A program made the translations under genes and the position numbers. The notes beneath the pieces are model-generated. The model made no database searches. It was not told the origin of the DNA and saw only the letters and a program-made list of their open reading frames with translations. Of a stretch of DNA of 64,000 bases, positions 45,433 through 62,075 are shown piece by piece. The DNA is from Candidatus Eiseniibacteriota bacterium (GTDB taxonomy: Bacteria > Eisenbacteria > RBG-16-71-46 > SZUA-252), in assembly GCA_035716005.1 (NCBI GenBank), contig DASTKG010000143.1, positions 490-64,489 on the forward strand, in the 5' to 3' direction. Position 1 is the first letter of the stretch; the number at the start of each line of letters is the position of its first letter.

Positions 45433-46091
45433 TGGCGACGCCACGGCATGGAAGCCGTGAAGCCCGCGATCAGTCGCTTCGAGTTCGCTGGCAGCCGCTC
45501 GAGTTCCCGTTCCGCGAGAAGGCGGAGGAGATCCTCCGGTCGTGCGTCCGGGAGCTGGGCCTGGCCGGCGTCGTGCACGATCTGCACGTCTCGATCGACC
45601 TCGAGAACCGCGACGATCACGCCTACATCGAGTGGAACACGCACGACCATCGCGCGGCCCGCCTCGCCTTCGCGGTGGGGAATTTCGTGACGCGCGAACG
45701 GCGTCGCGCGTGGGCCCGCACCTGGGGACGCCGCGAAGGGCTTCCGAGGCTCGTGCCCCGCCAGTTCTCGCCCCGCTCCTTCGCCGAGGCGTGCCTCCAC
45801 GAGCTGAGCCACCTCAAGGACGACCACGAATCGGGCGTCGATCTCTCGTCCTGTCCCGAGCCCGATCGCGAGGCCTTCAACGAACTCTGGAACGTCTGGA
45901 TCGACGGCCGGCTCCACCGCCGCGGGCTCCCCTCGATGACGCGGGGCGAGCGCCGGCGGGTCTACGCGCGCACGCTTTCGAAGTCGCCCGGGTACGCGAA
46001 GCGCGGCGAAAGGATCTTCCGCGCGCTCTGGACCGCCGATCACCTGAGGCCCGCCGAATTGCGCGCCTACCTCGACGAACTCCGCGGATGA
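45432..46091 (+). CDS. putative zinc-dependent hydrolase with an HExxH motif (DUF45/YgjP-like, M48/SprT-like)
   Basis: ACLHELSHLKDDHESG matches the HELxHLxxxxH(S) pattern of YgjP/DUF45-type metallohydrolases. The stop overlaps the start of the downstream PP2C gene. Confidence 0.45.
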   Translation: MATPRHGSREARDQSLRVRWQPLEFPFREKAEEILRSCVRELGLAGVVHDLHVSIDLENRDDHAYIEWNTHDHRAARLAFAVGNFVTRERRRAWARTWGRREGLPRLVPRQFSPRSFAEACLHELSHLKDDHESGVDLSSCPEPDREAFNELWNVWIDGRLHRRGLPSMTRGERRRVYARTLSKSPGYAKRGERIFRALWTADHLRPAELRAYLDELRG

Positions 46092-47863
46092 CCGACCCGT
46101 CCACCATCCCGGGACCGGCGCGCCTCTCCATCCGCACCGAGGAGGAGCGGCTCCGGTTCCTCGTGCGCGCCTCGCGCGAGCTCGCCCTCCTCAAGCGCGA
46201 CGCCCTCGCGCGAAAGGCGCGCGATTTCTTCCTGGCGGCCGCGGCCTTCCACGATCTCTCGCTCTGGGTCATCGACCCGCGGACCGAGGTGCTCTATCCC
46301 TGGACGCTCGGCAACACGCCCGTCCTGGGCAGGCGCCCCCGGCTCCAGGTCGGACAGGGACTCGCGGGACAGGCGGTGGCGGAGGAGCACGCCGTCTACC
46401 ACGCCGCGCTTCCCGAGTCGCTCTATCTCGCCCCGGAGTGGGGCGGGCGGCCGCTCGCCGAACTCGGCGGCGTTCTCACGCTGCCGCTTCGCCGCGGCGG
46501 CGAGCCGTTGGGCGTGGTGACCCTTCACAGGCCGGAGCGCGCGCCCGCCGAGGAGGAGATCGCGTTCCTGTCGGAGCTGGCGGCGCAGCTCGCCATCGCG
46601 GTCGGGAACGCGCGCGTCTATTCCGAGGCGATGCGCGAGAAGGTGGAAAACCAGCTCCTCCTCGAGCTCGGCACGAAGATCTCGGGGAGTCTCGACAGCA
46701 GCCAGCTGCTCGAGCAGATCCTCGACCTCGTCTTCCAGGTGGTGCGATACGACGCGGCCGGGATCTACCTCGTCGACAAGAAGACCCAGTGGATCACGCG
46801 GCAGGCGATCCGCGGCTACGAAGCCGATCGCGACGAGGCCGTGCGGCTGAAGGTGGGGAAGGGGCTCATCGGCTGGGTGGCGAAGACCGGGCGAGGCGTC
46901 ATCGTGCCGGACGTGGCGACCGACCCGCGCTACGTGAACGCGCGTGACGAGACGAAGAGCGAGATGGTCGCCCCCATCCGGATCGGAAGCGAAGTGATCG
47001 GAGCGTTCAATCTCGAATCGGACGAGCAGGACGCCTACGAATCCGAGGACATGGAGCTCCTGATGGCGTTCGCGGCGCAGGCCGCCGTGGCCATCGAGCG
47101 GACGCGCCTCCACGAGGAGGTGCTCGAGATGCGCCGCCTCGAGGAAGAGGTGACCATCGGGCAGCGCATCCAGCGCTCCTTCCTTCCCGACCGGAATCCG
47201 GAGATCCGCCACTTCGACATCGCGGGGGCCAATTTCTCGTCGGACCTGGTGGGCGGCGATTACTACGACTTCATCCGGATCGCCGAGAATCATCTCGGGA
47301 TCGTGGTCGGGGACGTTTCGGGGAAGGGGATCGCCGCCGCGCTCATCATGGCCATGTTCCGGGCGTCGCTCATCGCCGAGATCCGGAACAACTACGCGAT
47401 CCGCACCATCATCTCGAAGGTGAACCGCCTCCTCTGGGAGAGCGTCGAGGCCGACCGCTTCGTCACCGCCATGTACGGCGTCCTCGACATCGAGGCGCGG
47501 CGCTTCACCTACGTGAACGCCGGCCACAATCCGGCGCTCCTCTGCCGCGCGGGGGGCGACCACTTCGATCAGCTCGACGCCACGGGGCCCCTCCTCGGGA
47601 CCTTCGACCACGCGACCTACAAGGAGCGGATGGTGGAGATCCGCCCGGGCGACGTTCTCGTGATCTACACCGACGGCGTGACCGAGGCGATGGATCCCGC
47701 GTACGACCTCTTCGGGGAGGAGCGCCTGCGGGAGGTGATCCAGGCGCGGCGAGGGGAATCGGCCGCGATCGTGCTCCGGGCCATCTGGGACGCCGTGAAG
47801 GCGCACCGCCAGGGGCCGCTCGACGACGATATGACGATCGTGGTCGTGAAGGGGATGCCTTAG
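46088..47863 (+). CDS. GAF-GAF-PP2C serine/threonine phosphatase (RsbU/SpoIIE-like)
   Basis: Two GAF-like regions followed by PP2C motifs (GGDYYD, GDVSGKG, YTDGVTEA). The ATG at 46088 overlaps the upstream stop. The first 180 codons of track ORF 45542..47863 are read-through. Confidence 0.8.
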   Translation: MTDPSTIPGPARLSIRTEEERLRFLVRASRELALLKRDALARKARDFFLAAAAFHDLSLWVIDPRTEVLYPWTLGNTPVLGRRPRLQVGQGLAGQAVAEEHAVYHAALPESLYLAPEWGGRPLAELGGVLTLPLRRGGEPLGVVTLHRPERAPAEEEIAFLSELAAQLAIAVGNARVYSEAMREKVENQLLLELGTKISGSLDSSQLLEQILDLVFQVVRYDAAGIYLVDKKTQWITRQAIRGYEADRDEAVRLKVGKGLIGWVAKTGRGVIVPDVATDPRYVNARDETKSEMVAPIRIGSEVIGAFNLESDEQDAYESEDMELLMAFAAQAAVAIERTRLHEEVLEMRRLEEEVTIGQRIQRSFLPDRNPEIRHFDIAGANFSSDLVGGDYYDFIRIAENHLGIVVGDVSGKGIAAALIMAMFRASLIAEIRNNYAIRTIISKVNRLLWESVEADRFVTAMYGVLDIEARRFTYVNAGHNPALLCRAGGDHFDQLDATGPLLGTFDHATYKERMVEIRPGDVLVIYTDGVTEAMDPAYDLFGEERLREVIQARRGESAAIVLRAIWDAVKAHRQGPLDDDMTIVVVKGMP

Positions 47864-48257: not shown

Positions 48258-48346
48258 GCCGGAGTGGTGGAACTGGCAGACACGCGGGACTCAAAATCCC
48301 GTTGGGCTCAAACCCAGTGCGGGTTCAAGTCCCGCCTCCGGCACCA
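48258..48346 (+). tRNA. tRNA-Leu (anticodon CAA), class II with a long variable arm and encoded CCA
   Basis: Manual fold: acceptor GCCGGAG/CTCCGGC, anticodon arm CGGGA-CTCAAAA-TCCCG, variable arm TGGGCTCAAACCCAGT, T-arm GCGGG-TTCAAGT-CCCGC, and a 3' ACCA tail. Confidence 0.8.
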
Positions 48347-48486: not shown

Positions 48487-50094
48487 CTAGAACCGAATCA
48501 GCGCCACGGCCTGCCATTGGGAGGCTTCGCCGCTCTCCCCGTTTCGATTGTGCCGCGTTCCGAAGATGTACTCGATGCCGAGATCGATTCGACTCGACGG
48601 CGAAATGATGCCGTTGATCGCGAGGCGATTCGTGTAGCGGTAGGCGTCGGGGGACTGGAAGTCGAAGTTGTAGACCTTTACGTAGCTCCACAAGAAGGTC
48701 GAGTAGAAGTTCATGTTCTCGAGCGCCTCCCAGACCTTCCAGACGTGCTCCCAGGCGACGTACCACCCCAGGGCGGGGAGGGGCCTCATCTCCTGCGTCG
48801 TCGTATCGACGACGGCGTCCTGGCCGCCCAGCGACTGGAGATCGTTGATGTAGCGGGCGATCCCGACTCCGCCGTTCACCTGAAAGATCAGGCGATCCGG
48901 GATCGTCTTGATCGGGAACGGAAGGACGCCGCTCACGCTACCGCCTCCCGCCCACTTGGTGCTCACCTGTCCACTCTCGAGCTGCGCCCGGATTTGGCGA
49001 AGGACGCCAGCGAACTGGAAGTGCCCGTCCTTCTTGGCCGGGATGTAGGCGCGGGCGACCACGTCCGGGAAGAGACTCACCCCCTCGCCGCCGGTGATCG
49101 AGGCCGCCGGCTGCTCGGCGGCCACGGCGAGGCGAGTCCCCGGCTTGGGACTCCACCAATAGCGGATCTGCGGTTGGCGAATGACGTTTTCACTGCTGAC
49201 GCCCTCGAAGTCGAGGTCGTGATGGTCTGCGTTCGGATCGGAAAAGGTGGACCACGTCTGGCCCGCGATGACGCCCTTGAACTGCGCGTAGGCGTGGCGG
49301 AGGCGAAACGAGTTCGCGGTGCCCGCGAAATCTCCCTCGAAGAAGGCGCGAACCTCCTGTTTGCCGTTCGGAGTCCGGAACTCGACGTTCAACCGACTCG
49401 CGCGCGCCGAAATGTTGGTCCGCATGGCGCTGCCGGACGCGCCCACGTCGCCGACCGGGATCGAGTTCGTGAGGAATCGATCGTCGGTGCCGAGGGGATC
49501 GAGCGTCAGGACCGCCGCGGTACGGATTCGCCCACCGAACTTGATGGCGGCGTCCGTGCCCGGAATTCGGATCGAGCCGGGAAAATCCCCGGCGGCGACG
49601 ACGTCGGGTGGGAGTTCCGGCGACTTCTGAGTCGCCTCCTCGATCTGCTTGAGGCGCTTCTCGAGATCGGTCTGCAAGGCGGGGAGGCCCGATTGGCTCG
49701 ATAGCTCTTCCAGCCGCTTCTGCATCACCTCGAGTTGCTTCTGGAGCTCCTGCAGCGCCTCCTGCTGCCGCGCGATCGCCACCGATTGGCTGTCGGCGAC
49801 GGCTTGTCGCGACACGAGGAGAGACTCCTGCGCGGCAATCCGGGCCTGCTGCGACTCGATCATCGCGCGCTGGGCCTCGATCTCCTTCTGCTGGGCCGTG
49901 ACGCGGCTCGTGAGGGATGGGGCGGTGGACTTGGGCTTCGCCTTCGTGGCGGGCGCGGCGGTCGCCGGGGACGCGACGAGAAGGACGGCTCCGACCACGA
50001 TGGCCACCGCGAAGGCCAGAGCCCACGCGCCGCCCAGGCGCCACGAGGGCCTTCCCGGGCGGAGCCGGAGAGAGTGCGGGCGCGATCCGATCAT
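48487..50094 (-). CDS. outer-membrane porin with an N-terminal periplasmic coiled coil (DcaP-like)
   Basis: Signal peptide, a ~90-aa Q/E/L-rich heptad region (QQKEIEAQRAMIESQQARIAAQ...), then a beta-barrel-like body ending in ...ALIRF (C-terminal Phe). Start taken at the internal Met (MIGSRPH). Confidence 0.65.
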   Translation of the reverse strand: MIGSRPHSLRLRPGRPSWRLGGAWALAFAVAIVVGAVLLVASPATAAPATKAKPKSTAPSLTSRVTAQQKEIEAQRAMIESQQARIAAQESLLVSRQAVADSQSVAIARQQEALQELQKQLEVMQKRLEELSSQSGLPALQTDLEKRLKQIEEATQKSPELPPDVVAAGDFPGSIRIPGTDAAIKFGGRIRTAAVLTLDPLGTDDRFLTNSIPVGDVGASGSAMRTNISARASRLNVEFRTPNGKQEVRAFFEGDFAGTANSFRLRHAYAQFKGVIAGQTWSTFSDPNADHHDLDFEGVSSENVIRQPQIRYWWSPKPGTRLAVAAEQPAASITGGEGVSLFPDVVARAYIPAKKDGHFQFAGVLRQIRAQLESGQVSTKWAGGGSVSGVLPFPIKTIPDRLIFQVNGGVGIARYINDLQSLGGQDAVVDTTTQEMRPLPALGWYVAWEHVWKVWEALENMNFYSTFLWSYVKVYNFDFQSPDAYRYTNRLAINGIISPSSRIDLGIEYIFGTRHNRNGESGEASQWQAVALIRF

Positions 50095-50111
50095 GTCGCC
50101 GCTCGCGACGC

Positions 50112-51464
50112 CTAGAACATCAACGAGTAGGCGATGGCCACCGTCGATCCGGTCTGGCCGGCGGTGTAGTACCCGAAGGTGCTTCCGACCGGGCTGTGGT
50201 TCACGCCGATGTACTGGACGTTCAGGCGCGTGTCGCGGGTGTCGAACGGATACCAGTTCGAGCCGAGGATGTACTCGTTGGAGTCGCCGAAGCCCGCGTC
50301 CTCGTCGCCGTAGATCTGCGACGTGGCGACATAGACCTCCCACTTCTTCGGGATCGCGTACGCCGCCGCCTGGATGTAGAAGCCGCGGTCCTGGATCTCG
50401 GACGTGGGCACCGGTCCGTCGGCCTTGAACTTATCGAGCCACCGGATGTAGTGCTCCGCCTGGAGGAAGAAGCCGCGATGCTTCACGCCGGCGTCGACGG
50501 CGAGGACGCGATAGTCGGCGTTGGAGACCGTGACGCCGTTGGCGAGGGCGCCCGACTCGAAGAGGTTGACGCCGTCGGCGAGCTTCAGGGTCGTGTTCGT
50601 GGAGGTGCCGCTCCCCGTGAAGCTCTGCTCCGGGCTGTAGCAGTAGGAGGCACCGAATCGCGTGGCGACCTTTTCGTGCCTTTCGTAGTCGCCGTAGGCG
50701 CCGCGCGGACCGAACTCGCCCGTCGGCATGTACCAAACGGAGCCGCTCACGGTCGGATCACGGTCGAGGTCGGCCGCCTTGACGCCGAGGATGCTATTGC
50801 TGTTGCTCAGGAACGCGTTATACCAGAGGCCGCGAAACAGCTCCCCGTTCGCGTAGACCCCGGCTCCGAAGAAGGGGCGGAAGAACTCGTCGGCCATCAC
50901 CCGGTCGTTGCCGAGCCAGTAGGGGTGCGATCCGAGGAGGGATCGCGTCCCCGCGTTCCCCGCGATGCCCGCGTAGAGATTGAATTGTGGACTGAACTGA
51001 TACCCGATGTTCGCGAAGAGGGCGTCCTGATCCGTCGCGTTGACGGTCCAGAGGGTGAAGACGTAGATCAGCTTCGGATCGAACATCCACCCTTTCGCCC
51101 AGATCATGACGCGGTGCGGGTAGAGATCCTGGCGTCCATCCGTCTGACGCTGGTTTCCCAGATGGTCCGTCCAGGTCTGGGACGCGGGCGTCTGGTTGAT
51201 GTAGCGGATGAGGCCGTAGGCGCTGATGGCGAGCTCGCCGTGCTCGGTCCTCGCGACGAGGAACCCCTTGCCCGGGTCGTACGTGCCCCAGGTCTCCCGC
51301 TCCGGGAGCGTGGGTTCCTTCGCCGCCGCCACCGAGTCGGCCTTGGCCGTGATCGATGAATCGGCCTTGGCGTCCGCTCCTTCGGCCGCGGTCGGATTGG
51401 CGGCGCACAACGTCAGCGATGCGGCGAGCAGAATCCACGCATTCACTCTCATGATCCGGGTCAT
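50112..51464 (-). CDS. outer-membrane porin (beta-barrel, C-terminal Phe)
   Basis: Signal peptide, alternating amphipathic strands with aromatic girdles, and a terminal ...YSLMF. Confidence 0.6.
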   Translation of the reverse strand: MTRIMRVNAWILLAASLTLCAANPTAAEGADAKADSSITAKADSVAAAKEPTLPERETWGTYDPGKGFLVARTEHGELAISAYGLIRYINQTPASQTWTDHLGNQRQTDGRQDLYPHRVMIWAKGWMFDPKLIYVFTLWTVNATDQDALFANIGYQFSPQFNLYAGIAGNAGTRSLLGSHPYWLGNDRVMADEFFRPFFGAGVYANGELFRGLWYNAFLSNSNSILGVKAADLDRDPTVSGSVWYMPTGEFGPRGAYGDYERHEKVATRFGASYCYSPEQSFTGSGTSTNTTLKLADGVNLFESGALANGVTVSNADYRVLAVDAGVKHRGFFLQAEHYIRWLDKFKADGPVPTSEIQDRGFYIQAAAYAIPKKWEVYVATSQIYGDEDAGFGDSNEYILGSNWYPFDTRDTRLNVQYIGVNHSPVGSTFGYYTAGQTGSTVAIAYSLMF

Positions 51465-51613
51465 CCTTCCCGTCGGCCGGGACTAAGGGTCTGTGCGTCC
51501 AGATATCTCGATGAGCGAGTCAGTCCGTGCATCGGGGAATAAGGCCGTCCGCCGGGCGCCGGCGCCAACCCAGACACGCCGCGGGACCGACGGACGGCCG
51601 TTCCGAATCCTGC

Positions 51614-52678
51614 TTACCGAGGCTTCGGCGCGTACGGGTTGCCGCCCACGGCGTTCGACACGTCGGCGATCGCCTTCTGGGCCTTGACGCTGTTGCCGGC
51701 CGCGTCGAGCGGCGGCGAGATCACCGCGATTCCGAACTTGCCGGGAGAGACGGCCAGGATGCCGCCGCCCACGCCGCTCTTGGCCGGGAGACCGGTCCAG
51801 AAGAGCCACTTGCCGGAATCGTCGTAGAGGCCCGCGGTCGCCATCACGGCGAGCACCTCGGGCACGTTTTCGGTCTTCATGCACTGCTTGGCGGTGACGG
51901 GATTCTTGCCGCCGTTGGCGAGCGTCGCCGCCATCGTGGCCAGGTCCTTCGCATTCACGCTGATGGCGCACTGCTCGGTGTAGATGTCGCAAGCCTGGAG
52001 CGGGTTGTCCTTGATGTGGCCGTAGGCGTACATGAGCATCGCGATCGCCTGATTGCGCTGGTTGGTCGCCGCCTCTGAGTCGAAGACTTCCTTGTTGACC
52101 GTGAGCGGACGGCCGGCGAAGTCGCTGTGAATGCCGAGAATCTTGTTCCAGATCTCGTCGCGGTTGGCGCCGCTCACCATGCTCGTGGCCGTGATGGCGC
52201 CCGGGTTGACCATGGCGTTCATCTCGGCGCCCTTGTACTGCTCCACGGCGTTGATGGAGTTGAAGACCTGGCCGGTGGCGTCGACGCCCATGTTGTCCCG
52301 GATCGCTTCGGGGCTCTGCTCCTCCATGACCTTCGCCATGGTGAAGACCTTCGAGATCGACTGGATCGAGACTTCGGACGTGATATCGCCGGCGCTGTAG
52401 ACCTTGCCGTCGACGGTCACGAGAACGATGCCGTAGATCTTGGAATCGACCTTCGCGAGCGCCGGGATGTAGTCGGCGTTCTTGCCTTCCTGGAGATCTT
52501 TGAACTTGGCGTACGCGCCATCCACGGCCGCCTGATAGGCCGGCGCGGCCGGCGCGGCGGTTTTTCCGCCCTTCTGCGCGAAGGCCGAAGCGGAGGCCAC
52601 GGCCAGCATGACGACGACCAGCGTCAGCGCGCGGAAGCCGCCCGCGACGCGATGAAGCCGCTCATCGAAGCGGATCAC
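51614..52678 (-). CDS. glsA: glutaminase with signal peptide
   Basis: Glutaminase-family SIQSISKVF active-site serine motif and ~300-aa catalytic core. An N-terminal signal peptide is present. The start overlaps the upstream porin stop. Confidence 0.8.
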   Translation of the reverse strand: MIRFDERLHRVAGGFRALTLVVVMLAVASASAFAQKGGKTAAPAAPAYQAAVDGAYAKFKDLQEGKNADYIPALAKVDSKIYGIVLVTVDGKVYSAGDITSEVSIQSISKVFTMAKVMEEQSPEAIRDNMGVDATGQVFNSINAVEQYKGAEMNAMVNPGAITATSMVSGANRDEIWNKILGIHSDFAGRPLTVNKEVFDSEAATNQRNQAIAMLMYAYGHIKDNPLQACDIYTEQCAISVNAKDLATMAATLANGGKNPVTAKQCMKTENVPEVLAVMATAGLYDDSGKWLFWTGLPAKSGVGGGILAVSPGKFGIAVISPPLDAAGNSVKAQKAIADVSNAVGGNPYAPKPR

Positions 52679-53919
52679 TGGTTACCTCCCGTATTGATCG
52701 AGAAGCTGTACTTGAACGACACCTGGATGTGGGTGTCGTCGAACTTGAACCCGTCGGTGGTGGCGTCGCCCTTGTTCTCCCGCTCGATCCAGCCGCCCTC
52801 GATGCCGCACATGAAGTTCGGCACGGGGGTGTAGAGCAGATTCGCGAGCATGTACTGGCCGGTCTTGAAGGCCGTCGCGCTCTGTCCTTCGGAGTTGTCG
52901 ATGTCGAGGCGCGAGTATCCGATGGAGCTGCTGAACTTCTCGTTCCAGGTGTGATCGAGGAACGCCACGATTCCGGTCACCGGAAGCGCCACGCCCTTCA
53001 CGGGCTGGACCGGGTCGCTCGGCGTGTTCTCGGTGCCGATGTCGACGGGGGCGTCGTTCATGTAGTTCTCGACGCCCTCGCCATGGAGAAACTGGAGCCG
53101 CGCGACGTTCGCCTTGCCGAGCTTGAGATTGGAGCTGACGTTGAGGCCCCAGCCCGTGACGGCGTCGGAGAGATCCTGGGTCTGGGCGGGGCCCGCCGTG
53201 ATGTCGTCCCACTCGATCTGCCGCACGATTCCGGCCGCCTCGAAATAACCCCAGGGACGCGTGACGCGGTACTCGGCCGATAGATCGGGAAGCGGATAGC
53301 GGGCGCGGATCCCCGAGAGGTCGGCGATTTCGGAGGAAACCCCCTGGTCGCCGCTGGCGCCCGGGCGCTCGAGCGCGATCGTCATGCTGTTGTCGCCCTG
53401 GAGGGGCATGTAGCGGAGTTGGACGTTCCGAAAGAACGCCATTCCATTCGGGCCCCAGTACTCGAGCGTGTTCGGGAAGACGTCGATGTCCATGAAGGGG
53501 CTCCACGTCTGGCCGGCACCCCATTTGCCGAGCTCGCCGTAGGCGTGACGGAGCCGGAACGTCGTCTGGCCCGCGTCGACGCCCACGCCGTAAAGCTCGA
53601 ACTCGAACGTCGTCTTGATGTCGCCCATCTCGGTCGGAAGCGTCGACTTCACGCCGAAGCGCGTCTGCCGGGCGCTGAAGAAGACGCTTCCATCCTTCCC
53701 GAGCGCATCGGCCGCCGCCTGGGACTCCGGTAGCTTGGTCGGGCGCTGCGCGTCGAACCAGTTCGGATCGATCGCCTCGTTGTTGTAGCCGGCGTCCATC
53801 ATCACGAAGCCGTAAAAATTCATCGTGGCCGAATCGGCGGCCATCGCCGGCGCGGCGCCGCATACCGCGACGATCGCGAGGGCGACGAGCCATCCAGCGG
53901 ACGTTCTCGACTTGCTCAT
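52675..53919 (-). CDS. outer-membrane porin paralogue (DcaP-like barrel without the coiled coil)
   Basis: Signal peptide. The shared block FRLRHAYGELGKWGAGQTWSPF matches FRLRHAYAQFKGVIAGQTWSTF in the 48487..50094 porin. The C-terminal 10 residues are ...KYSFSINTGGNQ, with the YSF triplet at positions -9 to -7. Confidence 0.6.
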   Translation of the reverse strand: MSKSRTSAGWLVALAIVAVCGAAPAMAADSATMNFYGFVMMDAGYNNEAIDPNWFDAQRPTKLPESQAAADALGKDGSVFFSARQTRFGVKSTLPTEMGDIKTTFEFELYGVGVDAGQTTFRLRHAYGELGKWGAGQTWSPFMDIDVFPNTLEYWGPNGMAFFRNVQLRYMPLQGDNSMTIALERPGASGDQGVSSEIADLSGIRARYPLPDLSAEYRVTRPWGYFEAAGIVRQIEWDDITAGPAQTQDLSDAVTGWGLNVSSNLKLGKANVARLQFLHGEGVENYMNDAPVDIGTENTPSDPVQPVKGVALPVTGIVAFLDHTWNEKFSSSIGYSRLDIDNSEGQSATAFKTGQYMLANLLYTPVPNFMCGIEGGWIERENKGDATTDGFKFDDTHIQVSFKYSFSINTGGNQ

Positions 53920-53950
53920 ATCGTTCCTCCTGGGTTGATCCGAAGCGGGC

Positions 53951-55054
53951 TCACCGGCCCGGCTTCAGGTGCGCGGCTTCCCATGCCCGCGCGTTCCGAC
54001 GTCCTTCGTCGAAAATTCGCTCGTAGTTTCCCTTCCGGACTTTCTCGCTCGCCTCCTTGGTGAGCAGGGTCCACAGCGGCTGGTACATGTCGTAGACCTT
54101 GAAGTGGGACGCGGAATCGGCCGGCGCCACGTTGTCGGTGCCGAAGAGGAACCGGTCCGGATACTTGTTGATGAGGTCGGCGGTGCGCCGCGTCGCCTCG
54201 GGGCTCGAGATCACGTACTTCGCCGTCTCGTCCCACGAAAGATCGAAGGAGACGCGGACGCAGGCCGGGTCCTCGAGGATGTCCTCCAGCATGTCGAGGT
54301 GGTGGCTGACGGGCTGGACGACCCGCCCAACCCCGACGTGGGCCCAGATGATCGAGTTCTTCGGGTGCCGTTTCAGGAGGTCCTTGAACTCGGCGAGGAA
54401 CTTGGGCGTTTCGCCCTTGCGCGGGTAGGGCCGGTCGACGTCGTTGTGGATGATGCAGACCAGGCCGACCTCGGCGGCGAAGTCGAGCAGGCGGTCGAGC
54501 GCCGGGTCGGTGAGGCTCGCGATATCGCCCGCGATCTTCGAGGAGACGAACTCCTTGTGGATGCTGAACTCGCCGATTCCCGAGAAGACGCCGGGGAACG
54601 TGAGGAGAACGCGGCGGATGTGATCCGCGGCGTACATGTCGGTGGGATTGAAGCCGGTGATCATCGGATCGAATCGCGCCTGCTCCGACTTGGAGAGCGA
54701 CTTGTAGGCCATCGCGATGGCCGCGTCGGTGAAGGAGTAGTAGTAGAGCCGGGCGTCGGTATCGAGGTAGTAGGTCGGGGCGTCGGTGCCCGAAACGCGG
54801 TACGACCACTGCTGCTGAAGCGGAATGCCGAAAAGGGTCGAGCGGCCCACGCGATGACCCATGAGCTTCAGGTAGCGGTGGATGTCGATCCCTTCCTGGA
54901 CATAGTTCGTGAGGTGGAAATGCGAGTCGTTGAATTCGTAACGGCTCGAGCTCGCGCTTGCCGGCGCGGCGGCGGTGGGAAGGGGAGCGGCGGCGGCGAT
55001 CGCGGAGGCGATGACGGCCATTGCGCAGACGCGGCCGATGGCTCGAATGCTCAT
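53951..55054 (-). CDS. amidohydrolase-family metal-dependent hydrolase with signal peptide
   Basis: N-terminal DSHFHL (HxH) metal-binding motif typical of the amidohydrolase_2/TIM-barrel hydrolases. Start taken at the internal Met (MSIRAIG) preceded by GGAGA. Confidence 0.6.
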   Translation of the reverse strand: MSIRAIGRVCAMAVIASAIAAAAPLPTAAAPASASSSRYEFNDSHFHLTNYVQEGIDIHRYLKLMGHRVGRSTLFGIPLQQQWSYRVSGTDAPTYYLDTDARLYYYSFTDAAIAMAYKSLSKSEQARFDPMITGFNPTDMYAADHIRRVLLTFPGVFSGIGEFSIHKEFVSSKIAGDIASLTDPALDRLLDFAAEVGLVCIIHNDVDRPYPRKGETPKFLAEFKDLLKRHPKNSIIWAHVGVGRVVQPVSHHLDMLEDILEDPACVRVSFDLSWDETAKYVISSPEATRRTADLINKYPDRFLFGTDNVAPADSASHFKVYDMYQPLWTLLTKEASEKVRKGNYERIFDEGRRNARAWEAAHLKPGR

Positions 55055-55439
55055 GCGTCTCCTCGAGATCGTGAGCGGGAAACGATGGGCAACGCGGCCC
55101 GCTCCCATCCTGGACTTCGGGCACGATCGGCCACGACGGCTCGACGAACGCCGCCACGCCCCCCAGCGCAAGCGAACATGCCCTCCGAGGCGTGGCCCAC
55201 ACGATGAGTCCGTGGCGGCCCCATGCCTCCGTGGAGAAGCTAGTGTCGGGAGTCCGGTGCATCAATAGACCCTTGGTCCCATACCCGCATGGGACTCCAG
55301 GGACGCAAGATACGAAATCCGAACAGGCCGGAGTCTGCCTGAGAGAAGGCGAAACGGCAACGACCTTCCTGCCGGGGTCCGGCCCGGCATGGGAAGCCGG
55401 AGCATGACGGGCCTATTCCACAATCGAAAGGAGCGGGTC

Positions 55440-56156
55440 ATGTGGCTTAAATCGGGTCTCGTGAGTACCGTGATCGTGGGTACCTTGGCGTGGGGCGCGG
55501 CGGCCCAGGAGACGGCGCCGACGGCCCAGGACCGGGTCGAGATGTTGAAGCAGTCCTTCGCGGCATCCAAAGCGGCGCTGAAGCAGTACGAGTGGGTCGA
55601 GACGGTCGCCCTGTCGCTCGGCGGCGAGGAGAAGGTCCGCCAGCAGAGCCGGTGCTATTACGGGGCGGAGGGCAAACTCCAGAAGAGCCCGATCGCCACG
55701 GAGGACCAGGACGAGAAGAAGAAGAAACGCGGACTTCGCGGCAAGGCGATCGAGAGCAAGAAGGCCGAGGTGGGGGCCTCGCTCAAGGCCGCCGTGGGCC
55801 TCCTTCGGCAATACGCGCCGCTCGACCCGGCGAAGATCGAGGCCGCCAAGGCCGCCGGCAACGTCAGCACGTCCCTGCCCGGGGCGGACGGACGCATCCG
55901 CGTCACGATCAAGAGCTACCTCAAGCCGGGGGACGAAGTCGTCGTCGACGTGGACGGAGCGAAGAACACGCTACAGGGCGTTTCGATCGCCTCGTTCCTC
56001 GAGGAGGGGAAGGAGAAGAGTCCGGTCTCGGCGAAGGTGACCTACGCGGCCCTGCCGGACGGCACGATCTACCCGGGAACGGAAGTCCTCGAGATCGCCG
56101 CTCAGAATCTCAAGGTCGACATCGAGAACAGCGGATACAAGAAACTCGCTCCATAG
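55440..56156 (+). CDS. hypothetical lysine-rich periplasmic protein
   Basis: AAAGGAG RBS 6 nt before the ATG. Signal peptide LVSTVIVGTLAWGAAAQ. No recognisable domain. Confidence 0.5.
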   Translation: MWLKSGLVSTVIVGTLAWGAAAQETAPTAQDRVEMLKQSFAASKAALKQYEWVETVALSLGGEEKVRQQSRCYYGAEGKLQKSPIATEDQDEKKKKRGLRGKAIESKKAEVGASLKAAVGLLRQYAPLDPAKIEAAKAAGNVSTSLPGADGRIRVTIKSYLKPGDEVVVDVDGAKNTLQGVSIASFLEEGKEKSPVSAKVTYAALPDGTIYPGTEVLEIAAQNLKVDIENSGYKKLAP

Positions 56157-56206: not shown

Positions 56207-57064
56207 TCAGAATCGAAACGACGCCGAGAGCACGCCCACGAAGGCGTCGTCGAAATTCGAGCCCGCCTCGAGCAGCACCTCCCAGCGCTTGCCGAATCCG
56301 AGACTGCCTCCGGCCTGGTACGTCCAGGGGTCGACGGGGCGCTGGTCGATTTCCACCACCACGGTCCCGAGCGTCGGCGACTCCTCGTGGACGGTGAGCG
56401 TGCGGTCGGTCTCCAGATACGCGGCGCCGACCCAGGCCCTCCAGATGCCGCGGCGAGTCGAGCCGGACCAGCCCGTTCGCGCGGAGACGAACCAGGCCGA
56501 GATCCCTCCGTCGAGGGCCTCGAGATCCGTGTGGTTGTAGTTCGCGTCCCCCAGGACGAACCAGGGGCCGTACCCGGCCACGGCCGTGGCGCCGGCGCCG
56601 AGGAGCGGGCCGCCGACCTGCGTGTCCTGCGACAGGTCGAGAACGACCGGGGGGCCGAGGACGCGGTCGACCGTGACGGCGGCGTCGAGGCGGGAATCGG
56701 TGTAGGTGCCGCCCACGAGGACGTAGAGATCCAGGAGCGGCAGGATCCACGCGTCCAGCTTCAACGCCGCCAGGGTGGTGTTGTTTCGCACCGCGAAGCT
56801 CGCGACGTCGCTGACGCTCACCGGTTCGCGGGTGGGGAGGGTCACGCGAACGTCGGTGACCTCGATGTCCCGATCCATGGTGACCATGAAGAGGCTCACG
56901 CCGAACGGATTCGGGAGATCGATGCCGCGATCGAGTGCCCAATCCGCGCCGATCGGGAGGGGGCGCTCCCACCGGGAGTCTCCCTTGGGAGGGGATGACG
57001 CGGCCGCCGACGGCGAGACGGTCATCGTCGGCAGGATCATCGCCGCGGTTGCCGCCAAGGCCAT
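56207..57064 (-). CDS. hypothetical outer-membrane beta-barrel-like protein
   Basis: Signal peptide MALAATAAMILPTMTVSPSAAA, beta-rich sequence and a C-terminal ...ASFRF. Confidence 0.45.
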   Translation of the reverse strand: MALAATAAMILPTMTVSPSAAASSPPKGDSRWERPLPIGADWALDRGIDLPNPFGVSLFMVTMDRDIEVTDVRVTLPTREPVSVSDVASFAVRNNTTLAALKLDAWILPLLDLYVLVGGTYTDSRLDAAVTVDRVLGPPVVLDLSQDTQVGGPLLGAGATAVAGYGPWFVLGDANYNHTDLEALDGGISAWFVSARTGWSGSTRRGIWRAWVGAAYLETDRTLTVHEESPTLGTVVVEIDQRPVDPWTYQAGGSLGFGKRWEVLLEAGSNFDDAFVGVLSASFRF

Positions 57065-57207
57065 GCCTCGCCAATGCATCGCTGTCGCCTCCGGCCGGGG
57101 AAGGGGGATCGATATGGCGCCCTGCGAGCATCTTACCTACTATCCGCTCGAGCGGCATGCCGGCGCGCGGGCGATCGGAATCATGTTTCAGTGGGGGTGG
57201 GCCGTCG

Positions 57208-59154: not shown

Positions 59155-59847
59155 CTACGCGATCCCGTGGAACAATCGATCGAACCGGGGCCGGAAGTGA
59201 TCGCCGTCCCAGGACCAATAGAGGAAGACCGCCTTCCCCTTGATGTTCGAGAGGGGCAGCGGGCCCCAGAAGCGGCTGTCGAGGCTGTTGTCCCGATTGT
59301 CGCCCATCATGAAGATGGTGCCCGCGGGCACGACGTAGGGCCCGAAGTTGTCACGGGCGGAAAGCTCTCGCGGAAAGACGCGCGGATCTTCGTGGTGCGC
59401 GAAGGGCTCCACGCGCTTAGCGCCGTCGACGTAGAGCGTCTTGTCCTTGATCTCGATCGTCTGGCCGGCCACCGCGACGCAGCGCTTGATGAAATCCTGA
59501 CGCGGGTTCGGAGGATACCGGAAGACGATGACGTCGCCCGGCTTCGGCTGACGGATGGCGGGGAAGCGATAGTAGAAGTAGCGATGACCGCCGAACCCGA
59601 TATCGATCTCGGAGCCGTAGAGCATCTTGTTGATGTAGAGGAAGTCCCCGATCAGGAGCGTCCGCTCCATGGATCCGCTCGGAATCTGGTAGGCCTGGGC
59701 GACGACGCCGCGGAACGTGATGACGATCGCGAGGGAGATCGCCGCGGTCTTGATCCACTCGGCGAGGGTGTCGCCCTTCTTGGGCGGCTTGGCGCGCATG
59801 GCGGGCTTCTTCACGTCCTGCTTCGAATCCTTCGATTGCTTTGCCAT
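59155..59847 (-). CDS. lepB: signal peptidase I
   Basis: Catalytic Ser box IPSGSM, Lys box KRCVAVAGQ and GDNRDNSLDSRFWG box E. Start taken at MAKQSKD; the track ORF extends to 60114. Confidence 0.85.
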   Translation of the reverse strand: MAKQSKDSKQDVKKPAMRAKPPKKGDTLAEWIKTAAISLAIVITFRGVVAQAYQIPSGSMERTLLIGDFLYINKMLYGSEIDIGFGGHRYFYYRFPAIRQPKPGDVIVFRYPPNPRQDFIKRCVAVAGQTIEIKDKTLYVDGAKRVEPFAHHEDPRVFPRELSARDNFGPYVVPAGTIFMMGDNRDNSLDSRFWGPLPLSNIKGKAVFLYWSWDGDHFRPRFDRLFHGIA

Positions 59848-60131
59848 CGAGCGGCTCCTCGCGGGTTCGTTCCAGGCGGCGCGCCGACGGCACGATGGCC
59901 CGCCGGCACGCCGAAAACTGCATTGAGTATGCGCCATTTGTCGGCGTCCTGCAATCCGGCCACCGGACGCCGTGCGCCGACGATACCCCTCTAACCCCAC
60001 GCGCAGCCGGAGGTTCGAAGCCGAGCCGGCTGCATGGCCCCCTCCTTGCACCGATCGGGCCACGGCTAACGACAACTTGGGGCTGCCCCCACGGAGGGGG
60101 ATCGCAGGGTCCATTCCGTCAGGGGGTTTCC

Positions 60132-62075
60132 ATGATCCGCCTGAGTCGAAATCTCTACGTCGAGACCCGCCTTATCGTTTCGCTCGCGGCGCTGCTGGCC
60201 GCGTTGGCGATCGCCGCCGGCGCCACCAGGGCGTCGGCCGCGCCCCCGGTCCTGACCGTTCCGCCGGCCCAGACCGTCTCCGAGCAGCAGCTCCTCGCCT
60301 TCGGCGTGAGCGCGTTCGATCCAGACGGCCAGACGACCACGCTCCAGGCTTTCTCCAAGCCCGTGGGAGCGACGTTCGTCGACAACCACGACAACACGGG
60401 CTCCTTCGCCTGGACGCCGGCGAGCGATCAGTCGGGGAGCTACACGGTCCAGTTTCGCGCCGACGACACGTTCGGCGGCATCGACAACGAGTACGTGTCG
60501 ATCACGGTCCTGAACGCGAACGCGCCGCCCTCCATGGGGGCCATCTCCGATCGTCTCGTCGATCCCGGGACGATGGCCATCCTCTCCCTCTGGGCGACCG
60601 ACGACGACGGCGACCCGCTCAGCTTCGGCGCGAGCGGTCTCCCCGCGTGGGGCGAGTTCACCGACTACGGCGACAACACGGCCAGCATCGTGCTCGCGCC
60701 CCCGATGGGAACTCCGCCCGGGACGTGGACGATCACGGTGACCGTCACCGACGGCAAGGATCCCGTCTCGCAATCGTTCCAGGTCACCGTGACCGGAACG
60801 GCGGTGACGCACGCGCCCGTGCTCGATCCGTTCGCCGAGCCGACCGTGGCGGAAGGGGCGAGCGCGTCGGTGGCGCTCTCCGCGACCGACGTCGACGGCG
60901 ACGCTCTCGTATGGACGAGCGGACTTCCGAGCTTCGCGTCGCTCACGACGCTCACGAGCGCGCCGGGCTCCACGACGGCCCGACTCGACCTGGCGCCCGG
61001 CTACTGCGCGGCGGGGAACTACGCCGCGACGGTGGGCGTGAACGACGGCGCTCTTCTCGACTCGCAGAGCTTCACGATCCACGTCACCGACACCCCGCGG
61101 ACTCCCGCGTGGAGCGCGCCGACCGAAGGCGCCTCCGTCTCGCTCGCGGTCGGCTCCGCTCTGTCGATCGATCTCGCCGCGGCCGATCCCGACCAGGCGT
61201 GCGGCGGGGCGGCTCCGCTTCTCTCGCTCGCGGCGTCGGACGCCGGCGGCGCGCTCTCCTTGTCGCTCCTCGCGACGGGTCCCGGCGCGGGATCGCTGAG
61301 CGTGCAGGCGAACGGGCCGGGAGGCGTCTATCACGTGACGCTTCGCGCGAGCGACGGCGCGGACCCGGGCCGCTACGCGGAGCGCGTCGTTACCGTGACG
61401 GCCGAAGACGTGGCCCGCGCCGCCGAGGCGGTCGCCTGGCTGCAGCCGAAGCAGATCCGGTCCGAAACAGGCTCCGACTGGCAGCGCGTCTACCTCGAGC
61501 CGCTCGCCGGCACGTTCTCCCTCGACGATCTCGATCCGGCCTCGTTCCGGCTCACCGCGTGGGCCGGCGCCGGGAACGGCGGCGAGCTGGCGCCGAAGCC
61601 GGACGGCGTGACGATGGGATTCGACTCGAACGAGAACGGCGTGCTGGAATGCCGCCTCACGTTCGACAAGAAGGAACTCTGCGGTCTCTTCGGGAATCTC
61701 ACCGCGCCGACCGACGGTTTGATGACCATGACGGCGCGGCTCCTCGACGGCGGGCTGGTCCGGGCCGCGGTCGCCGCGAAGTTCGTGCCGGAGAAGAAGC
61801 GCGCCATCAAGCGCTGCGGTCCGAACCCGCTCAACCCCGAGGCGACGGTCGCGATCGAGACCGAGCAGCCGGGACGGCTCCGGGTCATGGTCTTCGACGT
61901 GCAGGGGCGCATGGTGCGCCTCCTTCTCGACGAGGCGAACGCGCCGGCCGGAACTCGAGAGGTGACGTTCAACGGGAAGGACAACCGGGGACGCGCGCTC
62001 CGGGCCGGACGCTACTTCGTCCGCGTGGAATCGCCTTCGGGCCCCGACGCGACGACGCTGACGATTCTCCCGTAG
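60132..62075 (+). CDS. secreted multi-domain protein with tandem cadherin-like/putative-Ig repeats and a C-terminal FlgD-Ig-like (T9SS-type) domain
   Basis: GGGGG RBS, signal peptide, ~5 repeats with DPDGD/TATDVDGD-type motifs, and a C-terminus NPLNPEATVAIE...VFDVQGRMVRLL...GRYFVRVE. Confidence 0.7.
   Translation: MIRLSRNLYVETRLIVSLAALLAALAIAAGATRASAAPPVLTVPPAQTVSEQQLLAFGVSAFDPDGQTTTLQAFSKPVGATFVDNHDNTGSFAWTPASDQSGSYTVQFRADDTFGGIDNEYVSITVLNANAPPSMGAISDRLVDPGTMAILSLWATDDDGDPLSFGASGLPAWGEFTDYGDNTASIVLAPPMGTPPGTWTITVTVTDGKDPVSQSFQVTVTGTAVTHAPVLDPFAEPTVAEGASASVALSATDVDGDALVWTSGLPSFASLTTLTSAPGSTTARLDLAPGYCAAGNYAATVGVNDGALLDSQSFTIHVTDTPRTPAWSAPTEGASVSLAVGSALSIDLAAADPDQACGGAAPLLSLAASDAGGALSLSLLATGPGAGSLSVQANGPGGVYHVTLRASDGADPGRYAERVVTVTAEDVARAAEAVAWLQPKQIRSETGSDWQRVYLEPLAGTFSLDDLDPASFRLTAWAGAGNGGELAPKPDGVTMGFDSNENGVLECRLTFDKKELCGLFGNLTAPTDGLMTMTARLLDGGLVRAAVAAKFVPEKKRAIKRCGPNPLNPEATVAIETEQPGRLRVMVFDVQGRMVRLLLDEANAPAGTREVTFNGKDNRGRALRAGRYFVRVESPSGPDATTLTILP

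Follow-up and report, generated by a model that had tools for sequence, protein, structure and literature searches.

A cluster of five co-directional genes on the minus strand (positions 48487-55054) was analysed in a 64,000-nt stretch of contig DASTKG010000143.1, hereafter the window, which derives from the metagenome-assembled genome of a soil bacterium, Candidatus Eisenbacteria. The genes were delimited from a listing of open reading frames (ORFs) and by direct reading of the strand, and they encode, in the order of transcription, an amidohydrolase (AH), a porin (P1), a glutaminase and two further porins (P2 and P3). The coordinates of the genes and of the surrounding features are collected in Table 1. 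The core of the cluster is a glutaminase of the GlsA/YbaS type, predicted to be periplasmic, whose translation is coupled to that of the preceding outer-membrane porin, and this pairing recurs in bacteria of at least five phyla. The original prediction had described five such genes next to a tRNA and had interpreted them as an envelope-localised module for the scavenging of amide nitrogen; all five were recovered on the minus strand, with the tRNA convergent with the cluster.

Table 1. Features of the porin-glutaminase cluster and its flanks in the window.
Feature	Position	Strand	Remarks
AH	55054-53951	-	367 aa; ATG start after GAGGAG
P1	53919-52675	-	414 aa; 31 nt after AH; AGGAGG
Glutaminase	52678-51614	-	354 aa; GTG start
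GC-rich stem-loop	51543-51599	-	just 3' of the glutaminase stop, within the 149-nt gap
P2	51464-50112	-	450 aa; 149 nt after glutaminase; NCBI version 446 aa, from the second Met
P3	50094-48487	-	535 aa; 17 nt after P2
tRNA-Leu(CAA)	48258-48346	+	ARAGORN; Rfam tRNA 57.2 bits
GAF-GAF-SpoIIE (PP2C) phosphatase	45542-47863	+	flank, unrelated to the module
255-aa ORF	55389-56156	+	leader-like N-terminus; no Pfam or NCBIfam match
290-aa ORF	56207-57079	-	C-terminus ...SASFRF; no Pfam or NCBIfam match
Signal peptidase I (Peptidase_S26)	59155-60114	-	flank, unrelated to the module
Large secreted Ig/cadherin/FlgD_ig-domain protein	59841-62075	+	flank, unrelated to the module

The glutaminase matched the Pfam family PF04960 at E 1.9e-101 (339.5 bits against a cutoff of 27), as well as the models NF009020 'glutaminase A' (422.6 bits; cutoff 395) and TIGR03814 (339.2 bits; cutoff 255.4). 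An end-to-end alignment was obtained with Escherichia coli YbaS (1U60; E 8.9e-89), outside which lay the first 47 residues of the window protein. The SxxK motif (SISK), the asparagine (NPGAI), both tyrosines and the KSGVGGG motif (KSGVGGGI) were conserved in this alignment; we take the catalytic roles of these residues, including that of the KSGVGGG serine, to be those known from the YbaS and YbgJ structures. The catalytic motifs are intact, and glutamine hydrolysis is the putative activity. The NCBI annotation of the same contig contains an identical 354-aa 'glutaminase A', although exact look-up of the window glutaminase returned no record.

All five products begin with a canonical Sec/signal peptidase I leader, in which a basic n-region is followed by 14-18 hydrophobic core residues and an A-x-A site, and none of the five N-termini fits a lipobox on reading. 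Leaders were called by reading combined with a simple heuristic of our own. The glutaminase leader comprises 34 residues. Of 120 glutaminase homologues from the database, 112 had leader-like N-termini, and a hydrophobic segment preceded the mature enzyme in every genomic locus (83/83). The sequence of the leader varies among these proteins and its pattern is kept, namely a K/R n-region, a hydrophobic core and an end formed by ALA followed by (A/Q)K. Export of the glutaminase is therefore well supported, in agreement with the signal peptide originally assigned to it; a leader was likewise found on AH in 28/30 loci. Lipobox-like leaders (…LP(T/A)CGGAA) occurred in two verrucomicrobial glutaminases (L045:9606-10679 and L048:9980-11023, locus numbers being those of the genomic comparison), and several metagenomic homologues had the leader …AVACAPALA; some members of the clade may be lipoproteins and not soluble periplasmic enzymes.

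P1 and the glutaminase overlap by 4 nt. This overlap had been reported as an ATGA junction; its length holds, and the strand reads GTGA, with the GTG start of the glutaminase at 52678-52676 and the TGA stop of the porin at 52677-52675. GGAGG lies 7 nt before the GTG, inside the last codons of P1. P1 proteins that precede a glutaminase usually do not end at the KY(S/N)F beta-signal but continue into a tail of the form '...GG(x)(x)', which after KYSF is 'SINTGGNQ' in the window (52675-52700, minus strand) and '...LGGKK' or '...IGGGH' elsewhere. A Shine-Dalgarno sequence was situated inside this Gly-Gly tail at 27/44 porin-to-glutaminase junctions, compared with 2/13 in other arrangements, and the translational coupling of porin and enzyme is therefore conserved. 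The tail of the porin seems to be shaped by the translation signal of the gene downstream.

P1 and P3 are members of the DcaP family (PF19577), with E values of 5.9e-21 (75.4 bits) and 6.7e-18 (65.3 bits), respectively, against a cutoff of 27 bits; P3 also matched Porin_2. Residues 29-406 of P1 aligned over the full length with residues 42-380 of the Acinetobacter baumannii DcaP chain (6EUS; E 1.8e-10), and P3 aligned with the same structure in two segments only (E 1.9e-15). The two porins had been called paralogues on account of a near-identical block, FRLRHAY...GQTWS(P/T)F; the block is present in both, but overall they are only 28% identical (E 8e-21). The FRLRHAY motif contains R148 and R150 of DcaP, two of the four arginines of its constriction, and all four (R114, R148, R150 and R189) align with arginine in P1 (RQTRFG, FRLRHAY, FFRNVQLRY) as well as in P3 (ASRLNV, FRLRHAY, IRQPQIRY). 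DcaP takes its name from a dicarboxylic-acid catabolic operon. The protein is trimeric and strongly anion-selective, its constriction is lined by the four arginines, and its substrates are of the dicarboxylate type (bioRxiv 10.1101/306035). According to a heptad and composition heuristic, residues ~63-155 of P3 form a Gln-rich, heptad-compatible stretch free of Pro and Gly, which spans ~90 residues before the barrel; by the same heuristic it is absent from P1 and P2. This is compatible with the coiled-coil porin expected from the original prediction, which had P3 gaining the coiled coil. That direction was presumed, since archetypal DcaP and the gammaproteobacterial homologues of P1 also carry a Gln-rich coiled coil, and P1 may equally have lost one. 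The window porins accordingly have the family membership and the constriction arginines in common with A. baumannii DcaP, and P3 has a putative N-terminal coiled coil as well; they differ from it in the low identity (P1, E 1.8e-10), in the lack of a coiled coil in P1 and in the genomic partner, here a glutaminase predicted to be periplasmic.

The DcaP search suggested for all three porins was positive for P1 and P3 and negative for P2, which had no Pfam match at E<=0.01 and is thus not of the DcaP family; a sequence search of the PDB with P2 gave no relative. Porin_O_P (PF07396) was nevertheless matched by 11/35 close homologues of P2 (57-77% identity), the best at E 1.7e-7. The AlphaFold2 (AF2) model of P2 shows an all-beta barrel after the leader helix at a moderate pLDDT of 72, and its best Foldseek match in the PDB was OprP (2O4V; E 3.1e-11, TM 0.51-0.55), with OprO among the matches and general trimeric porins ranking after OprP. 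The C-terminus of the protein is ...YSLMF. Taken together, the model points to a divergent OprP/OprO-like porin. The likeness to Pseudomonas OprP/OprO lies in the predicted barrel and in the Pfam matches of the homologues, while P2 itself misses PF07396 and has an amidohydrolase as its partner instead of a pho-regulon gene. The beta-barrel character claimed for the three porins is consistent with these results, as P2 models as a barrel and P1 (full length) and P3 (two segments) match 6EUS. The N-terminus of P2 homologues (P0271-P0359) frequently consists of a Cys-rich DUF3011 domain or of a coiled coil; DUF3011-like N-termini were seen in L024, L025, L031, L038, L066, L082 and L084, and coiled coils in L020, L039, L040, L042, L051 and L058. 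The porins of this neighbourhood appear to exchange periplasmic N-terminal modules.

AH is identical to the 367-aa 'amidohydrolase family protein' annotated by NCBI on the same contig. It matched Amidohydro_2 (PF04909) at E 2.9e-11 (44.1 bits; cutoff 26.4) over profile positions 119-287 only, and it had no match in NCBIfam and no relative in the PDB by sequence. Across 38 homologues, whose leaders vary, the residues D43, H45, H47, E162, H166, H203, D205, H239, D271 and D307 are invariant, and H45-x-H47, E162, H203, H239 and D307 sit at predicted strand ends; this ligand set suggests a binuclear metal hydrolase. The AF2 model (mean pLDDT 74) resembles amidohydrolase TIM barrels with a probability of 1.00, a TM of ~0.5 and 12-16% identity, the matches being uncharacterised hydrolases, ACMSD-type decarboxylases, LigJ, a COG3618 enzyme and dihydroorotase. 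In view of this low identity and of the lack of sequence matches in the PDB and NCBIfam, AH could not be placed in a characterised subfamily (ACMSD-type decarboxylase, LigJ hydratase, LigI or fuconolactonase, dihydroorotase). Two specific roles were also considered and set aside. A fumarate hydratase acting after aspartase does not fit, as AH is commoner than aspartase and is present in the window without it; an ATP-independent 5-oxoprolinase would be thermodynamically doubtful. Homologues are uniform (65-85% identity), and 1,724 of 1.84 billion representatives were matched at E<=0.001, of which 334 at E<=1e-30. By these searches AH represents a discrete, tightly conserved and uncharacterised family.

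The distribution of the cassette was determined in a scan with one genome per species, which gave 80 loci whose glutaminases are 68-86% identical; the carriers belong to Eisenbacteria, Acidobacteriota, Gamma- and Betaproteobacteria, Verrucomicrobiota, Nitrospirota and Zixibacteria. Neighbours were counted with the window proteins as phmmer queries at the 65 loci that had at least 1.7 kb on both sides of the glutaminase. A P1-type porin lay directly beside the glutaminase on the same strand at 48/65 loci, which belong to Eisenbacteria, Acidobacteriota, Gammaproteobacteria, Zixibacteria and Nitrospirota. The original prediction had called a glutaminase tied to its own porin uncommon, which is wrong for environmental bacteria, where the pairing is widespread. 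Within 6 kb of the glutaminase, AH was found at 32/65 loci, P2 at 29/65, P3 at 11/65, the asparaginase AnsB at 19/65 and the aspartase AspA at 11/65. AH directly adjoined P2 in 22/30 loci, which gives the module the look of a pair of cassettes in shuffled order, P1-GlsA and P2-AH, each made of an enzyme and a porin. Independent metagenome contigs, examined through gene calls and Pfam labels, agree with this picture; L001 has the same five-gene order as the window, and the eight-gene order AH-DcaP-AspA-AnsB-Porin_O_P-GlsA-P2-P3 occurs in L087, L090 and L091. Three of three AH homologues that had been picked solely for their long contigs, and not for a glutaminase neighbour, also lie in such clusters. 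When all stop-to-stop ORFs were clustered against one another, overlapping shadow ORFs of the high-GC DNA interfered, and only two transporter families were recovered, one SulP-type and one AspT/YidE-like. Because the arrangement recurs in dozens of species, it is well beyond chance; the identities of the genes, their conserved leaders and the conserved adjacency and coupling are direct observations.

The exported glutaminases are 68-98% identical across phyla (mature protein; loci L006-L085), with a floor of ~68%, and the mean identities between phyla (0.73-0.82) largely overlap those within phyla (0.78-0.80). The partner porin P1 diverges to 35% while the mature glutaminase stays at 68-98%, and the pairwise identities of GlsA and P1 correlate (Spearman 0.31; Mantel, 0 of 999). 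The uniformity of the glutaminase, which is similar in AH, may reflect either very strong constraint or frequent transfer.

Fuller clusters in relatives of the window add a periplasmic asparaginase, an aspartase that often carries a leader and an OprP-type porin. AnsB has a leader in 19/20 cases. AspA starts with a clear Sec-type leader in seven loci (L004:9177-10709, L007, L008, L012, L018, L056 and L073), which apparently implies a periplasmic aspartase; we know of no earlier description of such an enzyme. Loci of Holophagales and Thermoanaerobaculia contain a leaderless AspA beside an AspT/YidE-like transporter. In L089 (1-455, the gene running off the locus) AspA and AnsB are fused in a product of 873 aa that combines Lyase_1/FumaraseC_C with Asparaginase/Asparaginase_C and shares its cluster with DcaP, glutaminase and AH. 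In the window itself, no ORF matching PF00710 or resembling AnsB was found anywhere. The context of AnsB and AspA in these relatives supports a catabolic, nitrogen-harvesting role. In 16 mostly gammaproteobacterial loci, a SulP-like transporter with a STAS domain (for example L023:13079-14791, minus strand) was located within 10 kb of the glutaminase. C4-dicarboxylates and aspartate are transported by some members of the SulP family, for instance E. coli DauA, and the SulP-like protein is a candidate for an inner-membrane partner. The labels of the SulP-type and AspT/YidE-like transporters were read from the sequence and not obtained by a hidden Markov model search.

The stem-loop that follows the glutaminase gene has a stem of at least 13 bp, but for the gap as a whole the z-score is weak (-0.96). 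At the same place, 6/7 related loci have a comparable hairpin of unrelated sequence, including L001:9081-9136, L002:9081-9112, L086:11098-11138, L087, L091 and L004. The window hairpin matches no Rfam family, the tRNA being the sole match of the Rfam scan, and it was unflagged in a simple promoter and terminator scan of the window, which gave no excess over shuffled sequence. The hairpin is probably a partial terminator or an mRNA stabiliser. Because the 149-nt gap holds this strong hairpin, transcription of the cluster may be divided into two units, AH-P1-gls and P2-P3.

The tRNA-Leu(CAA) constitutes the downstream boundary of the cluster and lies outside the module. Upstream, the next gene is divergent and starts at 55389; beyond it, the product of the 290-aa ORF looks like a small outer-membrane barrel, judging from its C-terminus. 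The guanine-cytosine (GC) content is slightly lower in the cluster (60-67%) than in the flanks (63-72%), no island signature was found beside the tRNA, and the nearest relatives of the window P1 and AH are other Eisenbacteria proteins. A recent horizontal acquisition is thus unsupported, given the small GC shift, the missing island signature and the Eisenbacteria relatives of P1 and AH.

We consider it fairly probable that the cluster serves the acquisition of nitrogen and carbon, with porins that feed a deamidation of glutamine and related amides in the periplasm. Glutamine and probably related small carboxylate-bearing amides would cross the outer membrane through the arginine-lined P1 and P3, and the Sec-exported glutaminase, translationally coupled to P1, would hydrolyse glutamine in the periplasm, yielding glutamate and ammonium. 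The products would then be imported by general inner-membrane transporters encoded elsewhere. A second cassette, comprising the exported AH and the OprP-like P2, would handle a second substrate, and the fuller versions with periplasmic asparaginase, aspartase and an OprP-type porin would lead from asparagine through aspartate to fumarate. In this scheme the export, the selectivity of the porins, the substrate and the physiological purpose are inferred. The module first proposed therefore stands as far as its core of porin and periplasmic glutaminase is concerned (leader, 83/83; adjacent P1, 48/65; coupling; AnsB and AspA in relatives), and the scavenging of nitrogen itself is what we infer from that core.

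Several observations weigh against this interpretation. The exported glutaminase lacks an adjacent P1-type porin at 17/65 loci, including those of the cultured Plasticicumulans and Iodobacter, and the porin is therefore not obligatory. A sigma-54 promoter upstream of the cluster was sought in the window and five relatives, with nothing above the background of 1 hit per kb, and in or beside the window cluster there was neither a nitrogen regulator nor a transporter for glutamate or ammonium; the flanking genes include no transporter. Because AH belongs to an uncharacterised family, the amide label for the module as a whole is partly an extrapolation. Moreover, pores of the DcaP type prefer anions, and glutamine is a zwitterion, so that the preferred permeant might be an acid such as glutamate or aspartate. 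In one alternative, the porins chiefly admit acidic amino acids or dicarboxylates (glutamate, aspartate or fumarate-like anions) and the exported enzymes only widen the usable pool. The retention of all four DcaP constriction arginines in P1 and P3, the strong anion selectivity of DcaP and its dicarboxylate-type substrates (bioRxiv 10.1101/306035), and the resemblance of P2 to the anion-specific OprP argue for it. The translational coupling and the adjacency at 48/65 loci, on the other hand, imply a stoichiometry matched to the enzyme and not a general anion channel, and we regard this alternative, which departs from porin-fed deamidation only in the solute that crosses the pore, as unlikely.

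Protection of the periplasm against acid is improbable to a similar degree. Here the exported glutaminase, together with asparaginase and aspartase where present, would buffer the periplasm with ammonia in acidic soils, and the porins would supply the amides. The periplasm does equilibrate with the external pH, and each identified enzyme of the extended clusters releases ammonia. The closest characterised homologue of the glutaminase, YbaS (E 8.9e-89), is moreover an acid-resistance glutaminase (PMC5695133). The known system is cytoplasmic, however, and works with an antiporter, and no gadC, gadB, hdeA or other acid-stress gene was present in any inspected neighbourhood; ammonia formed in the periplasm would escape through the same porins, and the linkage to AspA and to an AspT-like transporter points to catabolism. 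Far less likely still is the explanation that the genes are chance neighbours or mis-annotated, with a cytoplasmic glutaminase called from a wrong start and 'porins' that are unrelated membrane proteins. The leader does contain an internal ATG (Met24), and high-GC DNA gives long spurious extensions of ORFs, yet the GTG start is preceded by GGAGG at 7 nt, NCBI has the same 354-aa product, and the leader is kept at 83/83 loci despite the drift of its sequence. The explanation is contradicted by these comparative data and by the synteny across phyla, and the barrel and homology evidence for all three porins speaks against it as well.

The proposed porin-fed deamidation in the periplasm resembles several known systems in part. 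YbaS (GlsA1; 1U60) has the fold, the family and the catalytic motifs in common with the window glutaminase; it is leaderless, whereas the glutaminase studied here carries a conserved Sec leader and is coupled to a porin of the outer membrane. In E. coli, YbaS is the glutaminase of the glutamine-dependent acid-resistance system, in which it is partnered with the antiporter GadC (PMC5695133). Periplasmic deamidation of glutamine or asparagine followed by import of the acidic amino acid is the feature common to the Pseudomonas periplasmic glutaminase-asparaginase (PGA/AnsB) and Campylobacter jejuni AnsB (PMC3417520; Sonawane 2003, cited in PMC3325844). A review singles out C. jejuni strains with a Sec leader on AnsB against strains unable to grow on asparagine (PMC3417520). 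Both are type II asparaginases and not of the GlsA type, and the window is without a PF00710 protein. Helicobacter uses a periplasmic gamma-glutamyltranspeptidase (GGT), likewise not of the GlsA type, together with AnsB in the same manner. To our knowledge, no such periplasmic deamidase is known to be translationally coupled to a dedicated porin.

Substrate-specific porins are found in catabolic operons in the form of ScrY, LamB, KdgM, ChiP, OprB and Occ/OprD, and the present cluster resembles them in its general design, which is that of a dedicated outer-membrane channel expressed together with the pathway that it feeds. The cluster differs in that several exported, ammonia-releasing enzymes each stand beside their own anion-type porin and in that the proposed substrates are amino-acid amides and not sugars. 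A coiled coil of ScrY is mentioned in bioRxiv 10.1101/306035. A specific porin within a catabolic operon and periplasmic deamidation are thus already known; what is new is the exported, porin-coupled clade of GlsA, its breadth across phyla, the AH family and the apparently periplasmic aspartase of relatives. Full-text searches on GlsA that is periplasmic or carries a leader, on DcaP with glutaminase, on the enzyme set with porins and on Eisenbacteria with glutaminase gave no description of the cassette.

GlsA-type glutaminases are usually treated as cytoplasmic enzymes of acid resistance and nitrogen metabolism, whereas the members of this clade appear, from their leaders, to be exported. The carriers are abundant and mostly uncultured lineages of soil and sediment, namely Acidobacteriota, Eisenbacteria, Steroidobacteraceae, and Haliea and its relatives. 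Glutamine and asparagine belong to the principal free amino acids of soils and root exudates, and if the proposed function is correct, these bacteria would have a route to both amides without specific inner-membrane amide transporters. It would further provide a physiological partner for DcaP-like porins, flag a periplasmic aspartase and nominate the sharply defined AH family for enzyme discovery. More speculatively, and with considerable doubt, the clusters could represent a cross-phylum 'outer-envelope amide mineralisation system' in which GlsA, AnsB, a periplasmic aspartase and AH, the last with a new catalytic activity, each have their own anion-type porin, and in which the periplasmic extensions of the porins (coiled coil, DUF3011) may arrange the enzymes below the pores. 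Much of the genetic basis of the L-glutaminase, L-asparaginase, L-aspartase and amidase activities that soil enzymology measures could lie in such a system; a literature search on these soil enzyme activities returned no relevant paper. The cassette probably marks a common, overlooked route to amide nitrogen outside the cytoplasm, and it offers marker genes for organic-nitrogen mineralisation in metagenomes.

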